The notes under the pieces: model-generated | Databases searched by the model: none | Seen by the model: the letters and a program-made list of their open reading frames with translations, nothing else | What the model was told of the DNA's origin: nothing | Origin: Escherichia phage vB_EcoM-G3F7 | Sequence record: MZ234035.1 | Reading direction: 5' to 3' (one strand) | Length of the DNA stretch: 64,000 bases | Translations under genes and position numbers: made by a program | Shown here: in pieces, positions 1-44,842 of the stretch | Numbering within the stretch: position 1 is the first letter of the stretch | Layout: each line of letters starts with the position of its first letter

Positions 1-969
1 ATGAAAACTGTAACTATCAATAAGGGTATCTACTTCGGTAAAGAAATCTCTGGAACTTTTGAGCTCTTAGGTGAATGGTTCCCAGATAATGCTCCGGTAG
101 ATGCACAAGGAGATGGTAAAGTTTTTGTTGAAATTGACGGTAAGCGTCGCGGTGTTTGGGTTTACAAATCAGACATTTCATATGATGGTGTAAAAGTTGA
201 AGAAGTTAAAGAATCATATGAAGATATGAAAACCCGCATTAATAAAAGATTTAATGTTATGGGAATGATGACGAATGGTATTATTAACGGAAACATTCGT
301 TCATTAATTATCTCTGGTGCGGCGGGTATTGGTAAAACGTATTCTTTAGATAAAGCTTTGAATAAAGCAAATGATAATGGATACATTGAATATAAAAGCA
401 TTAACGGTAAAATCTCCGGTATCGGTCTTTATGAACAACTTTGGAATAATCGTGAAGAGAATTCTGTCCTTTTGATTGATGATGTGGATGTTTTCTCTGA
501 TATGGACATTCTTAATCTTCTGAAAGCTGCTCTGGACACTGGAGAGACCCGTAAAGTCTGCTGGAGCACCGCATCTTCTTACTTAGAAGAAAAAGGCATT
601 GAGCGTGAGTTTGAATTTAAAGGAACGATTGTTTTTATCACAAACGTTGACATTGACCGCGAATTAGACCGTGGTACTAAACTTGCTCCACATTTACAAG
701 CATTAGTGTCCCGCTCGGTTTATTTGGATTTGGGTGTTCACACTAATGAAGAAATTATGGTCAGGGTTGAAGATGTTATTCTTTCAACTGACATGATGCA
801 AAAGCGCGGTCTTTCTGATGAAGAAACTTATAAAGCATTATCATGGATGAAAGTTAATGTTAATCGTTTACGCAATGTTTCACTGCGTACTGCTCTTTAT
901 CTTGCTGACTTTATTATGACCGACAAAAACGGTTGGGAAGAAATTGCTGAGGTTACTCTTCTGAAATAA
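1..969 (+). CDS. P-loop NTPase (AAA-like), nrdC.11-like early protein
   Basis: 322-aa ORF; Walker A GAAGIGKT and Walker B LLIDDVD motifs. Confidence 0.7.
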   Translation: MKTVTINKGIYFGKEISGTFELLGEWFPDNAPVDAQGDGKVFVEIDGKRRGVWVYKSDISYDGVKVEEVKESYEDMKTRINKRFNVMGMMTNGIINGNIRSLIISGAAGIGKTYSLDKALNKANDNGYIEYKSINGKISGIGLYEQLWNNREENSVLLIDDVDVFSDMDILNLLKAALDTGETRKVCWSTASSYLEEKGIEREFEFKGTIVFITNVDIDRELDRGTKLAPHLQALVSRSVYLDLGVHTNEEIMVRVEDVILSTDMMQKRGLSDEETYKALSWMKVNVNRLRNVSLRTALYLADFIMTDKNGWEEIAEVTLLK

Positions 970-1058
970 TTCATAAGAGGACTTCTATGACAAAAAGGCA
1001 GTTCAGAAATAGATTATATGGACTGCCATTAAAAAGATGACTAGAATTAAACTGGTGA

Positions 1059-1373
1059 ATGGAGGTAATGATGTTATACTCAAAGGCTCGTGAAATTTAC
1101 GAAACTAAAATTAAAGAAGCAGTATTTAAGTTCGCAACGACAATGCGATGGACAAATGACTGGGAGTATTCAAAAAATCATAAGAAGCCCATGGTGACAA
1201 GAAAGGCTCATATGTTAGTGTTAATAGACCGTGAGCAGATTAAAGCCCGAGAAGCCCTCCAGAATCATAAAAAGGCTGCCTTTGAATGGTTTATGGATAA
1301 CACTGCTCCTGAGACTAAGAAAGCGGTAAGCGCATGGTTCAGTGGAAAAAATTGTGAAAGAAGTTTCTTTTAG
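1059..1373 (+). CDS. hypothetical protein
   Basis: 104-aa ORF; GGAGG RBS precedes internal ATG at 1071, so true start may be 1071. Confidence 0.45.
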   Translation: MEVMMLYSKAREIYETKIKEAVFKFATTMRWTNDWEYSKNHKKPMVTRKAHMLVLIDREQIKAREALQNHKKAAFEWFMDNTAPETKKAVSAWFSGKNCERSFF

Positions 1374-1375
1374 TG

Positions 1376-1405
1376 GTTTACAAGACTGTTCCTCTGTGGT
1401 ACTAT
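1376..1405 (+). promoter_or_regulatory. T4-type early promoter
   Basis: GTTTAC, 18-nt spacer with TGG, TACTAT. Confidence 0.6.
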
Positions 1406-1433
1406 ACAACTATCAACTACGGAGGAACACAAA

Positions 1434-1961
1434 ATGAACGCTAAAGATATTTTCAACCTGGTAAATTACAACGATGGTAAATTTAAATCTGAAGCACAAA
1501 GTAAGTTCTTTAATGACATCTCAATCGAAGGTGAAATCACGGTTGACGGAGGACAAATTTACAAATCTCGTTGGAATTGGATCGTTATTATCGATGAGAT
1601 TGGTATTGTAGAAATTTACAAGAATACGAATAAAAATCGTACATTACACTGGTCTCGTGATACTAACGAACAGTACAAAAAGGATAAAGCATCTAAATTA
1701 TCTCGTGTAACTCAAGAAGATATTGAGTTCATCAAGAAAGATATTTTGATGTATGATAACTTAATTGCTGAAGAGCAAGCTGTTATTGATAAATTTGATG
1801 AGATTAAAGCTTCTCGTGAAATTCCTGATTTTATGAAAGAATCAGTAAATGAACGATACACTCTCATTTCAGAGCGTATTGAAACTTACAAAAAGCAAAG
1901 AGCTGAACGCCAGAATACTCTTCGGAAGTTTGAAGAACGGTTAAAGACGGTACTCGCATAA
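1434..1961 (+). CDS. hypothetical early protein
   Basis: 175-aa ORF immediately downstream of early promoter 1376-1405 and GGAGG RBS. Confidence 0.55.
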   Translation: MNAKDIFNLVNYNDGKFKSEAQSKFFNDISIEGEITVDGGQIYKSRWNWIVIIDEIGIVEIYKNTNKNRTLHWSRDTNEQYKKDKASKLSRVTQEDIEFIKKDILMYDNLIAEEQAVIDKFDEIKASREIPDFMKESVNERYTLISERIETYKKQRAERQNTLRKFEERLKTVLA

Positions 1962-1962
1962 C

Positions 1963-1987
1963 CGCTTTATACCAAGGATGGTATAAT
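1963..1987 (+). promoter_or_regulatory. MotA-box-like middle promoter
   Basis: CGCTTTA box, 11-12-nt spacer, TATAAT. Confidence 0.4.
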
Positions 1988-2016
1988 GGTTCTAAGCCCT
2001 TTTAATTGAGATTATT

Positions 2017-2424
2017 ATGAAACAGTTGATAATTAAAAGATTGAATTTATTGATATGTTGTTTATGTATAGCAATTGCATATGGTTATTACGCAATTAAT
2101 GATTATATGCATTATAAAGATTATGATGTTACTGTAGTTAATACCATTACAGGAACACAAGGAAAAGGGTCTAGTTTATCGTTTATTGCCGTATATGAAC
2201 TCAAAGATGGTTATAGATTTAGTGAATATATTTCCCCAGAGATGTATTCATCAATAGAAAAAGGTGATAATATTACTGTAAGTTTACGTCCTTTCGACGT
2301 AAAACAGACATTGTTTGATAATATTGTTTGGTTCTTTGGAATGGTATTAGTTCAATCTGTGTGTGGTGCTTATATAGTCTGTTCCATCTTATTCTGTATA
2401 TTTAGTAAAATTGAAATTGAGTGA
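2017..2424 (+). CDS. hypothetical membrane protein
   Basis: 135-aa ORF with hydrophobic Cys-rich segments at both ends. Confidence 0.5.
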   Translation: MKQLIIKRLNLLICCLCIAIAYGYYAINDYMHYKDYDVTVVNTITGTQGKGSSLSFIAVYELKDGYRFSEYISPEMYSSIEKGDNITVSLRPFDVKQTLFDNIVWFFGMVLVQSVCGAYIVCSILFCIFSKIEIE

Positions 2425-2431
2425 GGAAAAT

Positions 2432-3319
2432 ATGTCAGTAGTAATTAATAATGTCAATGCAGTAATTAAATCTTTAGTTAATAAAAAATTAAATGAATGG
2501 ACTGTACTTCGTCGTGGAGAGCCAGATAAATTTTTTCATAGATTTAACCCAACTTTGGATTTGAATGTTATTGACAGAGATGTTCATGCTGAAATTTTAG
2601 ATAAATTTAAAGTTGATATTGGGTTTGGGTTAGATAAACATTTGCAACGAACAAACGGATCTGGAATGGGTTTATCTAATCGCATCATGAAAGCCCTTAA
2701 TAAAATTGGAGCGTTGTCTCGTATTAATGCGAGTGAAATCCTTCGCAATTATAATAAAGGATATGACCTTTATGGTCGACTAATGCCGAAATTATCATTT
2801 GACCAAATGATTGCGGATTTGTGGGAAAATCAACGACGATTATTAGCATTAGGCGCTCGATTAGCTAAAGGTCTAGATAAACAAATGATTTTTAAGACCA
2901 ATAATACAGAAGACCTTAAATGCTTTAAATTTAGTACTCGTGGAGATGATTATTACATCAGAGCTCGCTCTACAGATTATGTTAATATGGGGCATCATCT
3001 CTGTTTAGCTTTTGAAGTTTTAAAAGAAGCCGGAACATTAGAATATGTGTCTGGTGCTAAATGTCCGATTGGTTCAAATTGCATTTTAATTTATCGCCCA
3101 GATGAATCCAGTTCAACTAAATTACCTACAAAACCTGTACCAGTTCGCAGTAATGAAAAACATTCTGAACAAATTGCTTATTTTAATAAGCAGATTGAAG
3201 AGCTAAATATTTCTATTCAGCAATATGATGATGAAATTTTCAGACTATCTGGATTGAGTAGTAAAGCTAAATCTGAGCGTGAAAAATTAATTAAAATCGT
3301 TGATTTACTTAAATCTTAA
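2432..3319 (+). CDS. hypothetical protein with C-terminal coiled coil (paralog A)
   Basis: ATG at 2432 after GAGGA RBS; C-terminal heptad-rich tail. Confidence 0.55.
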   Translation: MSVVINNVNAVIKSLVNKKLNEWTVLRRGEPDKFFHRFNPTLDLNVIDRDVHAEILDKFKVDIGFGLDKHLQRTNGSGMGLSNRIMKALNKIGALSRINASEILRNYNKGYDLYGRLMPKLSFDQMIADLWENQRRLLALGARLAKGLDKQMIFKTNNTEDLKCFKFSTRGDDYYIRARSTDYVNMGHHLCLAFEVLKEAGTLEYVSGAKCPIGSNCILIYRPDESSSTKLPTKPVPVRSNEKHSEQIAYFNKQIEELNISIQQYDDEIFRLSGLSSKAKSEREKLIKIVDLLKS

Positions 3320-3327
3320 GGAACACC

Positions 3328-4356
3328 ATGAAAACTCGTTCTCAAATTGAAGATATGGTTCGTAATGCCAGCTATACTCGTGATGTTATGACATTTTTGT
3401 GTGAAAATAATTTAGACCCTGATAAAGTTAATCGTGTTATTCATCACTTTAAGTATACGAATAGCAGTGAATGGGTGCGTAATTTTAGTAAAGCAGGGTA
3501 TATTACACAAATGACTGCTCGTGAACAGCTCACCGATTTCTGTAAAACTATTGATTATAAAAATCCTTTGATTGTTCAAGGCGTTGGTCAAAGTAAGGTC
3601 GATTTATCATCTGGATTTTTCAATCCAAATCATTATCGTATTGAATGGAGATTTATTGCTCTATTCCGTAAACAATTAAAGCAAATTTTGTCTACTGCTA
3701 GTCGATTAAAAGGCTCTGATATTAACTTAAAGAACCTGAAATTTGATGGTTATACTCTTCAGATGGAAGTAAGACCGTTAAAAGAAAATAATAGAACTGC
3801 ACGAATTAGCTTTAAGCCTAATACTAAAAATTCTCTTTCAATTTGTGAATGTCTTAAATCACAGCTGACAGAAGCATTTAAGTATATGGATGTTGTTGCT
3901 GCTGTTCAATCTAAGATTTTACCTCGTTTTGAGCGAAATTGGGAACATACAACAACATATGAACTTGATATGATCGTTTCATTTAAATATGAATTTTTGA
4001 GAAAGGATGAAATTGTTCAAGAGAAAAAGCAGGAAGTGCAAGATACCTTAAATTTAAATTTATCCAATTACTTATCAAACGATCCTAAATTTTGGATGTA
4101 TAGCTCAAGCAATATAGATGCATGTAAACTTAATAAAGTGAGTTTTCTTCCTACTGAAAATTCAAATTTTAAACCTGTAGAAAAATGGCACGCTGACGCG
4201 ATTGAGAAGTCTCTTAAGGCAGTAGATGATGAACTCGTTAAAGCGACCAATGAAGTGCTAGAAGCTGAAAAGGCGTTAGAACAAGCTCAGTCAAGGGTTC
4301 AAAATCTGACAAAGCAACGTTCTAAACTGAACAATGCACTAAATGCACTGAACTAG
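3328..4356 (+). CDS. hypothetical protein with C-terminal coiled coil (paralog B)
   Basis: 342-aa ORF; tail ...LEAEKALEQAQSRVQNLTKQRSKLNNALNALN; core resembles next two ORFs. Confidence 0.6.
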   Translation: MKTRSQIEDMVRNASYTRDVMTFLCENNLDPDKVNRVIHHFKYTNSSEWVRNFSKAGYITQMTAREQLTDFCKTIDYKNPLIVQGVGQSKVDLSSGFFNPNHYRIEWRFIALFRKQLKQILSTASRLKGSDINLKNLKFDGYTLQMEVRPLKENNRTARISFKPNTKNSLSICECLKSQLTEAFKYMDVVAAVQSKILPRFERNWEHTTTYELDMIVSFKYEFLRKDEIVQEKKQEVQDTLNLNLSNYLSNDPKFWMYSSSNIDACKLNKVSFLPTENSNFKPVEKWHADAIEKSLKAVDDELVKATNEVLEAEKALEQAQSRVQNLTKQRSKLNNALNALN

Positions 4357-4385
4357 TTTACTTTGCCACAAGGATGTGGTATAAT
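4356..4385 (+). promoter_or_regulatory. T4-type early promoter
   Basis: GTTTAC, 18-nt spacer, TATAAT. Confidence 0.6.
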
Positions 4386-4413
4386 GTTTTTACTTTCTAC
4401 TGAGGAGATTATT

Positions 4414-5415
4414 ATGACTCGTAACGAATATATCAAATCATTCAATAGCGTTATTGATGATAAAGCTATACCGATGTTTGGCCAAAATAGCGTTCTTTCT
4501 ATTATCAATCAATGGCTCAATAGTGTTGATGCAAGTATTGTTTCTTCTACTAAATTTATTCATGAAATTCGTAAAATTTCTAGCCGTGTAGATAAAGATG
4601 TTATCAAGAAAACCTTTAAAGAGTCTCGTCTTCTTTCATATTTGGTTAATCGGGATATTCTTGGTAATTTTGGGAAAGAAATTAAACGAACTAAAGATGT
4701 AGTAGGATACAATTGGTTCGGTGATGTTAATTCTTATCATCTTAATATTAAAGAAGACCCTGAGAATATTTTTACTCGTCGTTGGATCAGTAATTTCAGA
4801 CTTTTTAAGAAACAAATTCTAAAATCAGCTTCTAAATTATGTTATGGCGATTATCGTCAAATTCATCCTTTGGCTTCTGATATGATTATCATAAAAGAAT
4901 ATGAACTTGATAAAAATAAAGTATCTATTTTTGTGAATTATGGATTTTTTACACCAGAAACTAACCAAAAGAATATTAATAAATTTTTCTCAATTGCTAG
5001 CACTATAACTCGTCAATTAGAGACCGCATTACTTTGTATGGAAACAGTAGAAAATATTCATACATATCCTTTTAAGAATATATGCGGTTGGGAAGGATAT
5101 AAACTCGTAATTAGCCTTCGTGAAGTGAAATGTGCTTATTCACCTACTGATAAAGAAATTTACCAACAAAAATGTGATGAAATTGTGAATACTCCTAAAG
5201 AAGAAACTACCCTTGAGGAACTAATGGAATGTCTTGATGATTCACCTGAACCGATAGAAATTCGTCCAGAAGTTATTGCACTAGAAAAAGCTTATAAAGA
5301 AGTTCTAGAAATTTCTAATAAAGCGCAGAAAGAATATGAGCAGGCTAAAAGGATTTGGGAAGAATCTGTTAATCGTCTTGATCGTCTGGAACAAGCTTTA
5401 CAGTTAATTAAGTAA
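4414..5415 (+). CDS. hypothetical protein with C-terminal coiled coil (paralog C)
   Basis: ATG at 4414 after GAGGAG RBS; shares FKKQILKSASKL core with paralog B; heptad tail. Confidence 0.6.
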   Translation: MTRNEYIKSFNSVIDDKAIPMFGQNSVLSIINQWLNSVDASIVSSTKFIHEIRKISSRVDKDVIKKTFKESRLLSYLVNRDILGNFGKEIKRTKDVVGYNWFGDVNSYHLNIKEDPENIFTRRWISNFRLFKKQILKSASKLCYGDYRQIHPLASDMIIIKEYELDKNKVSIFVNYGFFTPETNQKNINKFFSIASTITRQLETALLCMETVENIHTYPFKNICGWEGYKLVISLREVKCAYSPTDKEIYQQKCDEIVNTPKEETTLEELMECLDDSPEPIEIRPEVIALEKAYKEVLEISNKAQKEYEQAKRIWEESVNRLDRLEQALQLIK

Positions 5416-5467
5416 TTTAAAGCCAAGGATGGCTCGGAGTATAAATCATTAACCAAGTGAGAAGAAC

Positions 5468-6394
5468 ATGAAAACTCGTAAACATTATATTGATTATTTT
5501 GACAGTCTTATTACTAAACATCGTAATTATCAGATAGGACACAGAGCAGTAATCAATAATATTCTTCGTGATTTTTTAGACTATATTGGATGGGAAAACC
5601 ATATTTGTAAAGATACACAAAATGCGTATTCACATTCTCTTGGTTCTTTGCTCGAGTGGTTCAAACGTTCCCGATTACTATCTTCTGTGATAGCTGTTAA
5701 TAATGTTAAAAAATTTATGTATCCAAGCTACATTGAGACTAATGTATCAAATGCTAGTGTTGTTACATTTAATATTATTAACGACGTGAAAAGAACTTAT
5801 TTAGAAGAATGGTTTTCTAAAGATAGTAAAGAAAAATTTGCTAGTGAATTTTCACACGAATTCAATAATAACGTGAATATGCTTTTTAAGCATTCTCGTA
5901 GACTGTTTTGTCATGGTGATAACCGTACTATTAATGTGAATGTAAAAGACTGGGTTACGGCTAAATTCACTCCATCGTCCCAGAATGGGCAATTTGAATT
6001 GTCAATTATCATTTGTGCTCCGCACGAGATATATAAAAACCTTCCGTATATGAAACCACGCGAAGCTAATAAACACAATGAAACTATTAGTTCTTTGGCT
6101 TATAATTTACGCGTGTTATTATCTGATATGGATGTAGTCAAATCCTTTGATGATAATACGAATTATGGTCTTTCGCTGTTTGAAACTAAATTTGTTATTA
6201 AATTAAAGGACCCTAGTGAATTTAAACCTACACCAAAATCCAATCATGGAAATGATACTATGAAAGAAGAACGCGAATATCTCAGTGCCCGTTTGATTGA
6301 AGTTGAAAAACAGATTGAAGAGCATACTAAAGTTCTTAAGGCTTTAACCGCCAAAGCAAATGGTTTACGTAATGCTATTGAGGTATTGAAATGA
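5468..6394 (+). CDS. hypothetical protein with C-terminal coiled coil (paralog D)
   Basis: 308-aa ORF; heptad tail ...[31 protein letters not shown]. Confidence 0.6.
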   Translation: MKTRKHYIDYFDSLITKHRNYQIGHRAVINNILRDFLDYIGWENHICKDTQNAYSHSLGSLLEWFKRSRLLSSVIAVNNVKKFMYPSYIETNVSNASVVTFNIINDVKRTYLEEWFSKDSKEKFASEFSHEFNNNVNMLFKHSRRLFCHGDNRTINVNVKDWVTAKFTPSSQNGQFELSIIICAPHEIYKNLPYMKPREANKHNETISSLAYNLRVLLSDMDVVKSFDDNTNYGLSLFETKFVIKLKDPSEFKPTPKSNHGNDTMKEEREYLSARLIEVEKQIEEHTKVLKALTAKANGLRNAIEVLK

Positions 6395-6780
6395 AAAAGC
6401 GTTTATTAGAAGACATTGCAGCTTCAAGTAATTCCAGTTTAATTAAAATTATTATGGCTGGTGAGGAAGATGATATGGAAATGCGTGGAAAGATTCACGG
6501 CTGCGACGATTTAGATTTTAAACCTCCAGCATGGGATGCTATTATGGCTATGGTTGAACGACGTGAAAGAGCTTCTAAAAACGTTCCTAATTGCCCTGAA
6601 TGCGGTACTGAACAAGTTCAATTGATTAACTGGCGTAAACCAGAGCTTGAATATAAATGCCGTCAATGTAAACATAAATTCAGTAAGCATGCTCCGGAAA
6701 TGGTTAAATTGCCTGACTCTACTGAGTTCTTTAAAGAACTTGTGAGTGTTCAACCAATGCCTAATAATATTTTGGATTAA
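6391..6780 (+). CDS. hypothetical zinc-ribbon protein
   Basis: 129-aa ORF; CPECG...CRQC motif; ATGA start/stop overlap with upstream ORF. Confidence 0.55.
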
Positions 6781-6782
6781 AA

Positions 6783-7025
6783 ATGACCAAGCGTAAAGAA
6801 TATATGGAGGCTGCTGAAAAGGCAGTCCGTGAATTAGCAATAGCTTATTATAATGAACATGGTAAATTTCCTGATAGATACAGCGTGCTTAAATCTGCTT
6901 TAACTCGTTCATATAAAAATATGCTATCAGAAGTAAGTGATATTATATACAAACATAAAGAACAAACGGGCCAAAGTCTTGATTACGACGAGACTTTTAA
7001 ACAAGTACTAGGAATTAAGGAATAA
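6783..7025 (+). CDS. hypothetical protein
   Basis: 80-aa ORF tightly packed between neighbours. Confidence 0.5.
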
Positions 7026-8283: not shown

Positions 8284-8319
8284 AAAAACTCAAAATTCTT
8301 TTTCTGACAGGACATTTTA

Positions 8320-8539: not shown

Positions 8540-9013
8540 ATGTTATTGACTGGCAAATTATACAAAGAAGAAAAACAAAAATTTTATGATGCACAAAATG
8601 GTAAATGCTTAATTTGCCAACGAGAACTAAATCCTGACGTTCAAGCTAATCATCTTGATCATGACCATGAATTAAATGGACCAAAAGCAGGAAAGGTACG
8701 TGGATTGCTTTGTAATCTCTGCAATGCTGCAGAAGGTCAAATGAAGCACAAATTTAATCGTTCTGGCTTAAAGGGACAAGGTGTTGATTATCTTGAATGG
8801 TTAGAAAATTTACTTACTTATTTAAAATCCGATTACACCCAAAATAATATTCATCCTAACTTTGTTGGAGATAAATCAAAGGAATTTTCTCGTTTAGGAA
8901 AAGAGGAAATGATGGCCGAGATGCTTCAAAGAGGATTTGAATATAATGAATCTGACACCAAAACACAATTAATAGCTTCATTTAAGAAGCAGCTTAGAAA
9001 GAGTTTAAAATGA
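8540..9013 (+). CDS. 49: endonuclease VII (Holliday junction resolvase)
   Basis: 157 aa; Cys/His zinc-site pattern; matches T4 gp49 as recalled. Confidence 0.85.
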   Translation: MLLTGKLYKEEKQKFYDAQNGKCLICQRELNPDVQANHLDHDHELNGPKAGKVRGLLCNLCNAAEGQMKHKFNRSGLKGQGVDYLEWLENLLTYLKSDYTQNNIHPNFVGDKSKEFSRLGKEEMMAEMLQRGFEYNESDTKTQLIASFKKQLRKSLK

Positions 9014-10827
9014 CAATTGAAAAAGAAATTGAAGGATTGATTCATAAAACTAATAAAGACCTTTTAAACGAGAATGCTAATAAAGATTCTCGTGTTTTTC
9101 CAACTCAACGGGACCTTATGGCTGGTATTGTGTCTAAACACATTGCCAAAAATATGGTCCCGTCTTTTATTATGAAAGCGCATGAAAGCGGAATTATTCA
9201 TTTCCATGATATTGATTATTCCCCTGCTCTTCCATTTACTAATTGTTGTTTAGTAGATTTAAAAGGAATGCTTGAAAACGGATTTAAGCTTGGTAATGCA
9301 CAGATTGAAACTCCTAAATCAATTGGCGTTGCTACTGCAATTATGGCGCAAATTACTGCACAGGTTGCTTCTCACCAATACGGCGGAACGACTTTTGCTA
9401 ATGTAGATAAAGTACTTTCTCCTTATGTTAAACGCACCTATGCAAAACATATTGAGGATGCAGAAAAATGGCAAATCGCTGATGCGTTAAATTATGCTCA
9501 ATCTAAAACAGAAAAAGATGTATACGATGCATTCCAAGCTTATGAATATGAAGTAAATACTCTCTTTAGTTCAAACGGACAGACTCCTTTTGTAACAATT
9601 ACATTTGGTACGGGAACTGACTGGACTGAACGAATGATTCAGAAAGCAATTCTGAAAAATCGTATTAAAGGTCTCGGTCGTGATGGGATAACTCCTATTT
9701 TCCCTAAGCTTGTTATGTTCGTTGAAGAAGGCGTTAATCTTTATAAAGACGATCCGAACTATGATATTAAGCAGCTTGCTTTAGAGTGTGCAAGCAAAAG
9801 GATGTATCCTGATATTATTTCAGCTAAGAACAATAAAGCTATCACCGGCTCATCTATTCCTGTTTCTCCAATGGGTTGCCGCAGTTTCTTGAGCGCGTGG
9901 AAAGATTCAACCGGTAATGAAATTCTTGATGGACGTAATAATCTTGGTGTTGTAACACTGAATCTTCCTCGTATTGCGTTGGATTCTTATATTGGAACAC
10001 AGTTCAATGAACAGAAATTTACTGAATTGTTCAATGAGCGAATGGATTTATGTTTTGAAGCTTTGATGTGTAGAATTAGTTCCTTAAAAGGAGTTAAAGC
10101 GACTGTTGCTCCTATTCTTTACCAAGAAGGTGCATTCGGGGTTCGTCTTAAACCTGATGACGACATAATTGAGTTATTTAAAAACGGTAGAAGTTCAGTG
10201 TCTTTAGGATACATTGGTATTCATGAATTGAATATTCTTGTCGGTCGTGATATTGGACAAGAAATTTTAACTAAAATGAATGCTCGTCTTAAACAGTGGG
10301 CTGAAAGAACTGGGTTTGCTTTTAGTTTGTATTCGACTCCTGCTGAAAACCTTTGTTATCGCTTCTGTAAACTTGATACAGAAAAATATGGAAGTGTAAA
10401 AGATGTTACCGATAAAGGATGGTACACTAACAGTTTCCATGTTTCAGTAGAAGAAAATATTACTCCGTTTGAAAAGATTTCTCGCGAAGCCCCATATCAT
10501 TTCATTGCGACAGGTGGTCACATTTCTTATGTTGAACTTCCTGATATGAAAAATAACCTAAAAGGTCTTGAGGCTGTCTGGGATTATGCTGCACAACATT
10601 TAGATTATTTTGGTGTTAATATGCCAGTAGATAAGTGTTTTACATGCGGAAGTACCCATGAAATGACTCCTACTGAAAACGGATTTGTTTGTTCTATTTG
10701 TGGAGAAACTGATCCTAAAAAGATGAACACAATAAGAAGAACATGCGGCTATCTTGGAACTCCTAGCGTTGTTCCATGGAATTTAGGTAAAATGAAAGAA
10801 ATGGTAAAACGAGTAAAACATGCATAG
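9010..10827 (+). CDS. nrdD: anaerobic ribonucleoside-triphosphate reductase NrdD
   Basis: 605 aa uninterrupted; C-terminal glycyl-radical motif RRTCGYLG and CxxC...CxxC zinc ribbon. Confidence 0.92.
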   Translation: MTIEKEIEGLIHKTNKDLLNENANKDSRVFPTQRDLMAGIVSKHIAKNMVPSFIMKAHESGIIHFHDIDYSPALPFTNCCLVDLKGMLENGFKLGNAQIETPKSIGVATAIMAQITAQVASHQYGGTTFANVDKVLSPYVKRTYAKHIEDAEKWQIADALNYAQSKTEKDVYDAFQAYEYEVNTLFSSNGQTPFVTITFGTGTDWTERMIQKAILKNRIKGLGRDGITPIFPKLVMFVEEGVNLYKDDPNYDIKQLALECASKRMYPDIISAKNNKAITGSSIPVSPMGCRSFLSAWKDSTGNEILDGRNNLGVVTLNLPRIALDSYIGTQFNEQKFTELFNERMDLCFEALMCRISSLKGVKATVAPILYQEGAFGVRLKPDDDIIELFKNGRSSVSLGYIGIHELNILVGRDIGQEILTKMNARLKQWAERTGFAFSLYSTPAENLCYRFCKLDTEKYGSVKDVTDKGWYTNSFHVSVEENITPFEKISREAPYHFIATGGHISYVELPDMKNNLKGLEAVWDYAAQHLDYFGVNMPVDKCFTCGSTHEMTPTENGFVCSICGETDPKKMNTIRRTCGYLGTPSVVPWNLGKMKEMVKRVKHA

Positions 10828-11650
10828 GTATTATATAATTTATAAAATAACAAATATAATTAATTCAAAGGAATATATCGGTGCGCATAGCACCGATAAC
10901 ATAAATGACGGTTATATGGGGTCAGGAACATTGATTCGTGCCGCTTTATTAAAATATGGTAGAAAAAATTTTAATAAAGAAATTTTACATGTTTTTGATA
11001 ATGAAAAACAAATGTATGATAAAGAAGCTGAACTTGTAACCGAAGAGTATTGTCTAAAAGAAAATACATATAATATTAAACCTGGTGGAAAAGGTGGAAC
11101 TGCTTATGAACAGACACTTGAACATCGCCACAAAAATAGTTTAGCAAATAAAGGTAAAAAGAAAACAGCAGAAACTAAAATAGCTATTTCACGTGCTTTA
11201 AAGAAATATAAACGTACACCAGAGCATCAAGCAAATTTAAATAAAGCTGTAAGCATAGCTATGAAGCGAAAAGATGTTAGAAGTAAATTAGTTGGAGAGC
11301 GGTCTGAGAAAGATAAATTATCTATATCAAACGGTGTTAAAAAATATTACAATTCTTTGAGCGAAGAAGAACGCGAACTTCATCGCAAGCGAATTATTGA
11401 AGGTAAAAAGAATTCTCCCATGTCATTGGAATCTAGACAAAAGCTTTCAAAAGCTTTAAAAGGACTTCAAGTTGGTTCAAAAAATCCAATGTATGGAAAA
11501 ATTTCTCCAACTAGTAAAACCGTTTCAGTTGACGGTATTAAATATGATTCAATTAAAAAGTGCTCAAATGCCATAAAAGTTTCTAGACATCTTATACTGA
11601 AACGCTGTAATTCTACTGATGAAGCTTGGAAAAATTGGATATTATTATGA
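10820..11650 (+). CDS. free-standing GIY-YIG homing endonuclease (Seg-like)
   Basis: 276 aa; N-terminal IIY...(10 aa)...YIG motif; basic C-terminal half; overlaps nrdD stop and nrdG start. Confidence 0.8.
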   Translation: MHRYYIIYKITNIINSKEYIGAHSTDNINDGYMGSGTLIRAALLKYGRKNFNKEILHVFDNEKQMYDKEAELVTEEYCLKENTYNIKPGGKGGTAYEQTLEHRHKNSLANKGKKKTAETKIAISRALKKYKRTPEHQANLNKAVSIAMKRKDVRSKLVGERSEKDKLSISNGVKKYYNSLSEEERELHRKRIIEGKKNSPMSLESRQKLSKALKGLQVGSKNPMYGKISPTSKTVSVDGIKYDSIKKCSNAIKVSRHLILKRCNSTDEAWKNWILL

Positions 11651-12118
11651 ACTATGACAGAATATACCCGTGCTGCTTTGTGAATGGTCCTGGATGCAGG
11701 ACCGTTCTTTTCGTTACAGGTTGTTTGCATAAATGCGAAGGGTGTTATAATAAATCAACATGGAATGCTAGAAATGGTATTCCATTCACTGGTGAAACAC
11801 TAGAACAATTAATTGAATGTTTGAATAATGATTATATAGAAGGATTAACTATAACCGGAGGTGACCCTCTTTATCCTGATAACAGAGACGTGATTCATTG
11901 CATCGTTCAAACAGTAAAAAAATCTTTATCCCAATAAAAGCATTTGGTTGTGGACAGGATATAAGTTTGAAGATATTAAACAACTAGAAATGCTTAAATA
12001 TGTTGATGTTATTATTGATGGAAAGTATGAGAAAAATCTTCCGACTAAAAAGCTGTGGCGAGGATCAGATAATCAGCGACTTTGGTCAAATACCTATGGG
12101 GTGTGGAAACATGATTAA
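11647..12118 (+). CDS. nrdG: anaerobic RNR activating protein NrdG, apparent +1 frameshift
   Basis: Radical-SAM CxxxCxxC (GCLHKCEGC) part stops at 11935-11937; conserved C-terminal part continues in +1 frame to 12118. Confidence 0.8.
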
Positions 12119-12238
12119 ATTGAATTATATTATATTATGGATACTATAAATGATATGATTTTTCATTTTGGTCCAGAATTTTATTCCCAATATAGTTTAG
12201 TGCTTATCAATGCTTGGTTAATTAATTAAGGGTAAAAT

Positions 12239-12454
12239 ATGTATAAATTTCGTAAAGGTTTAGCTGATTTTCTTACAACTGTAACATTCTTTCTGTTTAT
12301 GGCAGTTGGAGCTATTTTCCTTATTCCTTTTATTGCTATATTTTTCGTGATTAGTTTAATTTCTCCAGAAAAGGGCTTATCTTCTAGTGAGTTTAATGAG
12401 CGTCTGGATAAAATTACTAACAAGCTGAATGCTGTTCTTGATAAAAAGGCTTAA
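12239..12454 (+). CDS. hypothetical membrane protein
   Basis: 71-aa ORF with one long hydrophobic helix. Confidence 0.45.
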   Translation: MYKFRKGLADFLTTVTFFLFMAVGAIFLIPFIAIFFVISLISPEKGLSSSEFNERLDKITNKLNAVLDKKA

Positions 12455-12456
12455 TT

Positions 12457-12768
12457 ATGATTAGTTTTGAGCGGTATGTAGTAGAGAGTTGGAATGGTTT
12501 TGATATGTTCGGTAATGACTATTATTTCTATGAATGTAGTCTGAACCCAAGCTTCTGGGCTGGACGTGAACAAGACCTCGAAGAAATCAACGCTCGTGCC
12601 GATTTGTTAGGTGAACTGCCTACTACTTATTTCACCTTTGATGAATCCGGCTTCGTTATCCAGGTTTATTTTCCTGAAGAAAACTCTGGTGAGGATTCTG
12701 TTAATCCTCCTTATTGGGCTTACCAAGGAATTATTTCTCGTGGAACAAAACTCGAACTTAAAGAATAA
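12457..12768 (+). CDS. hypothetical protein
   Basis: 103-aa ORF, acidic. Confidence 0.5.
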   Translation: MISFERYVVESWNGFDMFGNDYYFYECSLNPSFWAGREQDLEEINARADLLGELPTTYFTFDESGFVIQVYFPEENSGEDSVNPPYWAYQGIISRGTKLELKE

Positions 12769-13063
12769 GATTGAAGTCTATGGAATTCCAGATGAAGTAG
12801 GTCGTTGTCCTGGATGTCAATCAGTTACAAAACTTCTAAAGGAGCTCAATGCTCCTTTTACTTTCTATAAAGTTCTTACAAATAATGGTAAGATTGAGTA
12901 TGATCGTCCACTGATTGTATCTCTTGCTAAACGCGCTGGATTCACATCTCTTAGCATTCGTTATCCAGTCATTTTCATTAATGATTCTAGACAAAAGAAC
13001 ATTAAACACTTCAAAGAAACTCTCATTTCACTTGGATATGATAGAGATATCATAGAAGACTAA
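12740..13063 (+). CDS. nrdH: glutaredoxin-like protein NrdH
   Basis: CPGC redox motif; start uncertain (GTG 12740 after AAGGA, no in-frame ATG near N-terminus). Confidence 0.55.
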   Translation: MEQNSNLKNKIEVYGIPDEVGRCPGCQSVTKLLKELNAPFTFYKVLTNNGKIEYDRPLIVSLAKRAGFTSLSIRYPVIFINDSRQKNIKHFKETLISLGYDRDIIED

Positions 13064-16464: not shown

Positions 16465-17667
16465 ATGAAAGTATGTATTTTTATGGCTCGAGGTCTTGAA
16501 GGTTGCGGTGTAACTAAATTTTCTCTTGAGCAGCGTGATTGGTTTATTAAAAATGGTCATGAAGTAACTTTGGTTTATGCTAAAGATAAATCATTTACTC
16601 GTAATTGTGCGCATGATTATAAATCATTTTCAATTCCGGTTTTATTAGCAAAAGAATACGATAAAACACTTAAGCTGGTAAATGATTGTGATATTCTAAT
16701 TATCAATTCAGTTCCTGCTACTTCGGTTGAAGAAGACACTATTAATAACTATAAAAAAATTATTGATAACATTAAACCTTCTGTTCGTGTTGTAGTTTAT
16801 CAACATGACCATTCTTCTCTTTCTTTGCGCCGAAATTTGGGATTAGAAGAAACTGTTCGTCGAGCTGATGTTATTTTTAGCCATTCTGATAATGGTGATT
16901 TTAATAAAGTTCTGATGAAAGAATGGTATCCTGAAACAGTTTCTCTGTTTGATGATATTGAAGAAGCACCGACAGTATATAACTTTCAGCCTCCTATGGA
17001 TATTGCGAAGGTTCGGTCAACCTACTGGAAAGATGTTTCTGAAATTAACATGAATATCAACCGTTGGATTGGTCGTACGACTACATGGAAAGGTTTTTAT
17101 CAGATGTTTGATTTTCATGAAAAACATCTTAAACCTGCAGGACTAAGTACTATTATGGAAGGTCTGGAACGTTCTCCAGCGTTCATTCCTATTAAAGAAA
17201 AAGGAATTCCATACGAGTATTATCGTCTTCATCAAGTAGACCAAATTAAAATTGCTCCTAATTTGCCAACGCAAATTCTTGACCGTTATGTAAATAGCGA
17301 AATGCTTGAACGCATGAGTAAATCCGGATTTGGTTATCAGCTGAGTAAGTTGGACAAAAAATATCTACAACGTTCTTTAGAATATACTCATCTCGAGCTT
17401 GGTGCATGTGGAACAATTCCTGTTTTCTGGAAATCTACTGGCGAAAATTTAAAATTCCGTGTTGATAATACTCCTTTGACCTCACATGATAGCGGTATCA
17501 TTTGGTTTGATGAAAATGACATGGAATCAACATTCGAGCGTATTAAAGAATTGTCATCTGACCGAGCTCTTTATGACCGTGAGCGAGAAAAAGCATATGA
17601 ATTTTTGTATCAGCATCAAGATTCAAGCTTCTGTTTTAAAGAACAGTTTGACATTATTACAAAATAA
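16465..17667 (+). CDS. agt: DNA alpha-glucosyltransferase
   Basis: 400 aa; N-terminus MKVCIFMARGLEGCGVTKF...; length matches T4 alpha-gt. Confidence 0.85.
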   Translation: MKVCIFMARGLEGCGVTKFSLEQRDWFIKNGHEVTLVYAKDKSFTRNCAHDYKSFSIPVLLAKEYDKTLKLVNDCDILIINSVPATSVEEDTINNYKKIIDNIKPSVRVVVYQHDHSSLSLRRNLGLEETVRRADVIFSHSDNGDFNKVLMKEWYPETVSLFDDIEEAPTVYNFQPPMDIAKVRSTYWKDVSEINMNINRWIGRTTTWKGFYQMFDFHEKHLKPAGLSTIMEGLERSPAFIPIKEKGIPYEYYRLHQVDQIKIAPNLPTQILDRYVNSEMLERMSKSGFGYQLSKLDKKYLQRSLEYTHLELGACGTIPVFWKSTGENLKFRVDNTPLTSHDSGIIWFDENDMESTFERIKELSSDRALYDREREKAYEFLYQHQDSSFCFKEQFDIITK

Positions 17668-38259: not shown

Positions 38260-38412
38260 ACAAAGATATGACGTTAGAAGAGGCTAAAGCAAAAGCAAAT
38301 GAAGCATTGGATTTGCTTCTTAAAATTGGCAGTAAAATGATGGAAGAAAATGAGAAATATATCCAGGAAAACAAAATTCCTGACGGCCCATTAGTAGGCA
38401 AGAGGAAATCAC

Positions 38413-38883
38413 ATGATTGAAGTAGCAAAACATTATTCAATAGAATTTATGTCTAAAGAAGGTAAATCAGTAAATACACTTGACAAAAAGTGCTCGTTAA
38501 TTATTCCTTTAGCAGAAAATCCGGATATTTTAATTAAAGATATAAAAGAAAGAAAATACCCAGAAAATGTTATTCTAATTATAAAGCATACTGAAGATAT
38601 TTTGCAGAATACTGATTCACCGTTTTCTTCTTCTGAAGCTTTAACTATTAAAGGCTATAAAAGAGCTCATGAATATGGTCTTTTTGACCTGTTTGAAGAC
38701 GATAAAGTTAAATTAGCGAGTCAACCTTCTAAAAGTAAAACATTCATTATTGAAGATATTAAAGATATAAATGCATTCGTTAAGATGGTCTGGGCTCATT
38801 TTGATGTTGGACTACGCTGGAGAATGTCCGAAGAAGAAAGAAAGATTATTGAAGCTAATCGTCAATTTGGTTTTTATCGCTAG
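38413..38883 (+). CDS. hypothetical protein
   Basis: 156-aa ORF. Confidence 0.5.
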
Positions 38884-38891
38884 GAATTAAT

Positions 38892-39074
38892 ATGGATTTA
38901 TTTGAGATGTTAGAAGATAATCATTCTACGAATATCCAGAATGATTCTAGTGATTATAAGAAAGAGTACCGTATAGTATTACAGAATTATGGAATTGAAG
39001 CCCCAGATGCTCTTCTAGAAGAACTAGCTTCATACCATCTTGACCCTCCGCCTTGGGCTCCTTGGGCAAAATAA
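38892..39074 (+). CDS. hypothetical acidic protein
   Basis: 60-aa ORF. Confidence 0.4.
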   Translation: MDLFEMLEDNHSTNIQNDSSDYKKEYRIVLQNYGIEAPDALLEELASYHLDPPPWAPWAK

Positions 39075-44341: not shown

Positions 44342-44842
44342 ATGAAAATTTATCGTGTTGAATCATCGTTTAGTATTCTTGATTATGAAGATGCTATAAC
44401 AATACGTCGAAATCTTTGTGTTCAAATAACGCCGTACAGGAGTATAATAGATTCATGGAGCGAAGAGTGGCTATTACACGTAGGTTATGACAGACCTAAT
44501 TTTATGCATCATAGCGATAATAATAAAAGAATTCCTTTACCACACGAAGATAAACTATTAGTTAAAAACGCTAATATAGTAATTAATACTAAGTTCAAGA
44601 AAGATTATGTTGGAGTAGAATATCATATTCCAGGATGGTTTATAGCTCTTTATCATTTTGCTTTCGCTAGCGAATATGATATGATGAGATGGTTCACACG
44701 AGAAGAGCGTGAAGAATTAGCTTCGAAAGGATTTTATCTTGCTGTATACGAAGTACCAGATGACCAAGTTATCGTTGGCGGGCATCAAGTAATGTTCCGT
44801 AAATCCCATGCTGAACTTGTAGATTTTATTGAAATGAGATAA
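44342..44842 (+). CDS. hypothetical protein
   Basis: 166 aa from ATG 44342 downstream of early promoter 44285-44314. Confidence 0.5.
   Translation: MKIYRVESSFSILDYEDAITIRRNLCVQITPYRSIIDSWSEEWLLHVGYDRPNFMHHSDNNKRIPLPHEDKLLVKNANIVINTKFKKDYVGVEYHIPGWFIALYHFAFASEYDMMRWFTREEREELASKGFYLAVYEVPDDQVIVGGHQVMFRKSHAELVDFIEMR

Follow-up and report, generated by a model that had tools for sequence, protein, structure and literature searches.

A probable single-base insertion in an adenine run interrupts nrdG in a T4-like Escherichia phage

Phage nrdG encodes the activating protein of the anaerobic ribonucleotide reductase, and the locus described here raises the question of whether this gene is truly broken at a run of seven adenines (A7), or whether its two-frame appearance reflects an error in the deposited sequence or a way of making the whole protein in spite of the frameshift. 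We approached this question by reading the interrupted gene within the window, which is the whole 64,000-nt stretch of DNA analysed, by comparing the run with its counterparts in related phages, and by weighing a real mutation against a miscall and against several forms of recoding.

The interrupted gene and its neighbours

Translation of frame 0 from the ATG at 11647 gives 96 residues (MNYDRIYPCC...IVQTVKKSLSQ) before a TAA stop at 11935-11937, and this 5' fragment of nrdG (11647..11937, plus strand) corresponds to the GenBank CDS G3F10_020. Its residues 1-91 are native NrdG, including the radical-SAM sequences CLHKCEGC and GGDPL, and are followed by five out-of-frame residues, KSLSQ. The CxxxCxxC motif for the [4Fe-4S]/SAM cluster is present at residues 26-33 (CLHKCEGC), and the 96-residue product gives Pfam matches to Fer4_12 and Radical_SAM. 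Read directly in the window sequence, seven adenines occupy 11916-11922 on the plus strand in the context ...CAAACAGTAAAAAAATCTTTATCCCAATAAAAGC..., where relatives have six (A6), which makes this run the likely site of a single-A insertion. The +1 frame is closed upstream by TAA at 11915-11917, then reads KNLYPNKSIWLWTGYKFEDIKQ...GVWKHD and stops at TAA 12116-12118, so that the 3' part of nrdG (11918..12118, plus strand) comprises 66 sense codons (KNLYPNKSIWLWTGYK...GVWKHD) and a TAA. These translations bear out a preliminary description of the locus, which had ended the radical-SAM N-terminal part at the same TAA, continued the C-terminal part in the +1 frame to 12118 behind the same upstream stop, and placed the indel at the A7 run.

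The same description had predicted that removal of one nucleotide would yield a 156-codon reading frame colinear with E. coli NrdG, and the in-silico repair agrees with it. With one A removed, the gene runs to 471 nt (156 codons and a stop), and the repaired protein scores 196 bits against the TIGR02491 NrdG profile, which has a cutoff of 126.1, while its residues 1-145 align colinearly with positions 1-150 of the 154 positions of the E. coli-type NrdG profile NF008335. The repaired protein is also identical to PM105 NrdG at 156 of 156 residues and to T6 NrdG at 155 of 156, and the identification of the gene as nrdG thus stands. Taken separately, the 5' fragment reaches 111.1 bits on TIGR02491 (profile positions 1-94 of 154) and the C-terminal piece 61.8 bits (positions 101-153). 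Because both fragments fall below the cutoff and only the sequence repaired in silico passes it, the gene as encoded is a disrupted nrdG rather than an intact member of the NrdG family. The GenBank record already splits nrdG into two CDSs with an identical product name (G3F10_020/021). We considered duplicate product names as a check on the annotation quality of G3F10 and found them uninformative, since names in this record (MZ234038.1) are smeared over unrelated neighbours, as in window positions 1-7025 and 38268-39074, where ten consecutive CDSs are called 'thioredoxin' and three CDSs beside modA are called 'molybdenum ABC transporter'; the product names are therefore not trustworthy.

The neighbourhood of the gene follows the phage T6 arrangement, with gp49 (endonuclease VII), nrdD, a free-standing GIY-YIG homing endonuclease gene, nrdG, small ORFs and nrdH in this order, onward to gp55. 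The class III ribonucleotide reductase gene nrdD, whose product is activated by NrdG, lies at 9010..10827 on the plus strand and is intact. Its 605-residue product has no internal stops, carries the glycyl-radical motif RRTCGYLG, matches Pfam NRDD and Gly_radical, and is identical to T6 NrdD at 599 of 605 residues. As in T6, only segH lies between nrdD and nrdG. This segH-like gene (10820..11650, plus strand; 273 of 276 residues identical to T6 SegH, 47.3 bits on TIGR01453) shares 8 nt with nrdD and 4 nt with nrdG (ATGA), and it is context for the nrdG lesion, not a part of it. At the position between nrdD and nrdG, T4 has the HNH gene mobC, and WilhelmHis, F1 and HX01 have nothing, the two genes overlapping directly. 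In comparison with the seg-less WilhelmHis, all 12 differences in the repaired nrdG fall in the first 90 nt (the 11647-11740 region of the window) and none in the other 381 nt; in comparison with the seg-less F1, 10 of 12 differences fall in the first 90 nt. The segH carriers (the window, T6 and PM105) read YPCCFVNG here, and the examined seg-less phages, together with the mobC carrier T4, read YPCDFVNG. Judged from these alignments, the first 90 nt of nrdG look like a co-conversion or target-immunity tract beside a homing endonuclease gene. A literature search returned nothing usable on a T4 nrdG mutant phenotype or on the SegH cleavage site.

Several further features were noted downstream of nrdG. 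At 12119-12140, just 3' of the gene, a 5-nt insertion (ATTAT) is shared with PM105 and absent from T6, PM123 and WilhelmHis, and it changes a small 55.9-like ORF from 37 codons, overlapping the nrdG stop, to 30 codons starting at 12137. An intact 103-codon ORF (MISFERYVVESWNGFDMFGNDYYFYEC...) occupies 12457-12768, between a 55.8 homolog and nrdH. It occurs in PM105, PM123 and WilhelmHis and is absent from T4 and T6. The G3F10 GenBank record omits this ORF, and calls instead a 40-aa ORF on the minus strand (12451-12573) and, at 12641-13063, a 140-aa 'hypothetical protein' that is extended too far and includes NrdH. Loss of the nrdH start codon was considered as a second hit in the pathway and rejected, since PM105 and PM123 share both the GTG start and the coding sequence with the window, and the product matches NrdH of T4 and T6.

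Distribution of the seven- and six-adenine alleles

A 601-nt query from the locus matches the record of G3F10 (MZ234038.1), a T4-like Tequatrovirus, at 100% identity and at the same coordinates, and the first 50 kb of that record equal the window, which corresponds to the first 64 kb of that genome. With a 116-nt query centred on the adenine run, 595 records matched in the phage collection, and among the matches listed only three, G3F10, CHD94UKE2 and PM123, cover all 116 nt at 100% identity; the remaining listed matches all span 115 nt, not 116. Eight records, representing seven other phages by our count, have this same haplotype with A6 and an intact gene, at 99.1% identity over 115 nt, namely F1 (two records), FN, WilhelmHis, UTI-E2, Proteus phage Isf-Pm2, Salmonella phage UAB_60 and F26. 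In the two that were checked, WilhelmHis and F1, the sole difference in the haplotype is one A fewer. WilhelmHis, an isolate from Basel of independent origin, belongs to the same species, and nucleotides 91-471 of the repaired nrdG are identical to its gene. A query with the whole 472-nt nrdG matched 815 records; among the 120 listed, a split annotation is found only in G3F10, CHD94UKE2 and PM123, and the full-length matches span 471 nt against the 472 nt of the query. The '(x2)' nrdG annotations of pSe_SNUABM_01 and HX01 were examined as further split genes and rejected, each being an intact 471-nt gene with an overlapping small ORF. In both of these phages, as in T4, with which the preliminary description had proposed an alignment, nrdG is a single 156-codon gene. 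That description had also allowed that homologs might likewise consist of two ORFs, but a single intact 471-nt gene is present in all the other relatives examined.

Two further collections give a similar distribution. An exact-pattern scan of IMG/VR, a sample too small for a census, returned no match for the A7 haplotype and none for a degenerate A7 pattern, and it found the A6 pattern on 4 contigs. In an index of 153 billion genes the truncated 96-aa product occurs on 3 contigs only, of which the two listed are the G3F10 and PM123 GenBank records. Across the phage collection, IMG/VR and this index, there was no sign that the A7 allele circulates outside the lineage of one laboratory. Taken together, these comparisons indicate that A7 is most readily read as a derived state, in which one base has been inserted into an allele that otherwise shows no change, and the insertion appears to be very recent because nothing 3' of the lesion has decayed.

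A heritable allele or a miscall

The preliminary description had left two alternatives side by side, a homopolymer-length error and a real inactivation of the gene. Of these we favour the second, and consider it probable that a genuine and very recent A6 to A7 insertion has inactivated, or nearly inactivated, nrdG in the CHD94UKE2/G3F10 lineage. A7 occurs in three separately deposited genomes, including PM123, and A6 in phages that passed through the same pipeline; the error is the less likely alternative. On that view the true phage sequence has A6 and nrdG is whole, the added A having entered the consensus in error, perhaps through PCR slippage in a Nextera library or through polishing, and having spread to related records. 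We regard this explanation as unlikely, although it is the most probable of the rivals, and the history of the three records bears directly on it.

The three A7 records share a single study, laboratory and pipeline, in which genomes were sequenced on Illumina MiSeq with Nextera libraries made with 13 PCR cycles and were assembled with SPAdes (PMC8614997); this common source and the PCR cycles speak for a shared error. According to the same study, CHD94UKE2 is a wastewater isolate, and PM123 is an "epsilon-squared" phage obtained by breeding CHD94UKE2 together with three further myoviruses over 20 Appelmans-type rounds, with about 11% of its coding regions derived from CHD94UKE2; the study gives no description of G3F10 (PMC8614997). 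Over the 49,945 nt compared, G3F10 and CHD94UKE2 do not differ except by a 55-bp tandem duplication present in the record of the latter, and they may be the same stock, so that true independence rests mainly on PM123. In PM123, A7 lies inside a block of ten sites diagnostic of CHD94UKE2 (11856-11932), and the flanks of this block match neither G3F10 nor PM105 and apparently derive from another ancestor. It follows that the A7 block is a recombinant tract in a phage that was isolated separately and sequenced in a separate library, which a consensus error would not readily explain. Against an error also stand PM105 and other bred phages, which went through the same pipeline and have A6 in nearly the same context, and the rarity of Illumina consensus errors at a 7-base run.

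The duplication in CHD94UKE2 (MZ234031.1) is an observation in its own right. Positions 11660-11769 of that record correspond to window positions 11660-11714, an exact 55-bp tandem duplication of nrdG nucleotides 14-68, and this is the sole difference between CHD94UKE2 and G3F10 in the first 50 kb, the record lengths differing by exactly 55. It breaks the CHD94UKE2 nrdG a second time, giving three CDS pieces in GenBank. The junction has no microhomology, and the size equals a k-mer often used by SPAdes, a hint that an assembly junction may have escaped curation; to that extent the duplication lends some support to the error explanation. This leaves two readings of the duplication, an assembly junction left untrimmed or a genuine second hit in a gene that was dead before.

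The homopolymers of the genome provide a further test of the assembly. In 47.4 kb compared with WilhelmHis, a homopolymer-length indel within a gene was found at the nrdG adenine run and nowhere else, and therefore the assembly is not generally error-prone at homopolymers, which weighs against a miscall at this run. Of the indels whose length is not divisible by three, most are intergenic or form compensated pairs where the sequences diverge; at an uncompensated 1-nt difference near ~38355 the window ORFs are intact. Two other length differences from WilhelmHis were noted. At 44664-44680 WilhelmHis has an extra ATATG copy that gives two ORFs (348 and 162 nt) in place of the single 501-nt ORF of the window (44342-44842), and at 8284-8289 the window has A6 and WilhelmHis A7 in an intergenic position just after the pin stop codon. 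From these comparisons, slippage indels seem to be common in accessory regions of this phage group.

The composition of the window (65% A+T over 64 kb) allows a second view of the run. There are 64 exact six-base A/T runs, only 2 runs of at least seven against ~33 expected from base composition, and none of at least eight against ~11 expected, and long homopolymers appear to be selected against in this genome. Runs of at least five are in excess, with 434 observed and 322 expected. The only other A7 run (16753-16759) lies in frame within the intact alpha-glucosyltransferase gene (16465-17667). From the 2 runs observed against ~33 expected, it follows that A7 in nrdG is not an equilibrium state but a derived one, and a fresh change of this kind fits the scarcity of runs of at least seven. 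Taking the lineage and the homopolymers together, we judge a miscall to be much less likely than an allele that is truly inherited.

Consequences, recoding and known systems

If A7 is a heritable insertion, as we favour, it most likely arose by strand slippage at the homopolymer during DNA replication, the classical Streisinger mechanism; an A6 run is a classical target of replication slippage in T-even phages. The insertion would shift the reading frame after codon 91 and end translation five codons later. The resulting 96-residue product would keep the [4Fe-4S]/SAM cluster motif and lack the C-terminal 65 residues of the radical-SAM fold (profile positions ~95-154), and such a truncated NrdG would presumably fail to generate the glycyl radical on NrdD, which is itself intact. 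The phage would then be left without, or almost without, a working anaerobic ribonucleotide reductase of its own, with NrdD made but not self-activated. Class III ribonucleotide reductase is oxygen-sensitive and dispensable in aerated culture, where dNTPs are supplied by the aerobic phage enzyme NrdAB, by host enzymes and by the breakdown of host DNA. A lesion in the class III system would be tolerated in aerated laboratory culture because the enzyme is not needed there, which may explain the persistence of the A7 allele, and recombination would have carried the allele into the bred phage PM123. As PM123 carries A7 and is the most virulent of the bred phages in artificial urine (PMC8614997), the lesion is at least not costly in that medium. 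Nothing suggests that A7 was selected for, since it is found in only one of six bred myoviruses.

An insertion in a slippery run can also be read as a device. In this alternative, full-length NrdG would arise in useful amounts if tRNA-Lys slipped by +1 on AAA-A or if RNA polymerase slipped on A7, or the run would act as a reversible on/off (contingency) switch. We consider such a role very improbable, and it is a little less probable still in its specific form, in which toggling between A6 and A7 would shut down the activase in aerobic niches and restore it in the gut, or leaky decoding in the +1 frame would keep catalytic traces of NrdG. If it were true, the run would be a contingency locus in the nucleotide metabolism of a lytic phage. 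A +1 slip from AAA at 11917-11919 to AAA at 11918-11920 gives the exact wild-type sequence ...TVKNLYPNK..., the tRNA being able to re-pair in the new frame. NrdG presumably acts catalytically, so that small amounts may suffice, and the downstream part of nrdG has not decayed, an observation that recency explains equally well. Against these points, the shift site is not conserved, every examined relative other than the three A7 records having A6 and a single 471-nt ORF. Neither do the signals that usually assist recoding appear around the run: no Shine-Dalgarno-like element occurs in the 55 nt upstream of it, the 88-nt RNA downstream folds no better than its shuffles (-13.3 kcal/mol, z = -0.54), and the codon in the A site after the slip is AAA, a common lysine codon that is not slow. 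Characterised bacterial transcriptional slippage involves A/T runs of ~9 or more, and a run of seven is shorter than the runs at which such slippage is efficient. Classical -1 frameshifting on the perfect A_AAA_AAA heptamer was also considered and rejected, since a -1 slip leads into a third, closed frame (...KKIFIPIKAFGCGQDI) that ends after 21 codons. With an inactivating insertion as the preferred reading, a rare +1 slip by the ribosome or RNA polymerase, or reversion of A7 to A6, would give back the wild-type protein unchanged; both such reversion and a low, incidental leak are expected, yet they would not amount to a programmed device.

A split enzyme, in which the 96-aa N-terminal piece and a separately initiated C-terminal piece of 42-56 aa (from TTG 11948 or ATG 11990) would form an active two-chain activase, is the least credible of the rivals and close to negligible, for although GenBank lists two CDSs and both pieces are still NrdG-like, no ribosome-binding site precedes either start (the sole Shine-Dalgarno-like match in 11861-12000, AGGA at 11956, is downstream of TTG 11948 and precedes ATG 11990 by 34 nt), the product would lack residues 92-101 or 92-115, no split arrangement occurs in the other relatives examined, and a 2013 survey of phage ribonucleotide reductase genes has no interrupted nrdG (PMC3653736).

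What this allele means in practice depends on the use of the phages that carry it. CHD94UKE2 and PM123, which was bred from it, are candidates for phage therapy of urinary-tract infection, and the bladder and the gut are oxygen-poor, so that loss of the phage's own anaerobic dNTP supply could lower its yield there. The A7 allele is also a convenient natural marker for CHD94UKE2-derived DNA in bred phages, and for database curation the CDS pairs G3F10_020/021 and PM123_020/021 would be better annotated as one disrupted nrdG. For general biology the import is small, as this would be one more case of homopolymer slippage disabling an accessory gene that a T-even phage can do without.

An interrupted nrdG is uncommon but not conceptually new, for it combines a well-known mutational mechanism with a non-essential gene. 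The gene is the same as that for NrdG (gp55.9) of T4 and T6, the anaerobic ribonucleoside-triphosphate reductase activating protein of TIGR02491, with the same position 3' of nrdD, the same length after repair and the same CxxxCxxC motif. It differs from its T4 and T6 counterparts in being interrupted by a one-base insertion, with neither of its ORFs reaching the family cutoff. The closest parallel to the lesion itself is found in the Streisinger-type frameshifts of T-even phages, such as the rII and lysozyme hot spots at A runs, which likewise involve the gain of a single base in six A's in a T4-like genome; as with those mutations, nrdG is dispensable on plates and reversion by loss of one A is to be expected. 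Unlike those selected mutants, the A7 allele of nrdG is a natural or laboratory-stock allele that came to light by genome sequencing, and its mutational origin is deduced rather than observed. The run also resembles the sites of programmed +1 frameshifting in prfB and of transcriptional slippage in Thermus dnaX and Shigella mxiE, in that a shift-prone homopolymer lies at the frame junction and +1 re-pairing would give the full-length protein. In contrast to these systems, A7 in nrdG is not conserved, is only seven bases long, and is accompanied by no stimulatory Shine-Dalgarno element, slow codon or RNA structure.
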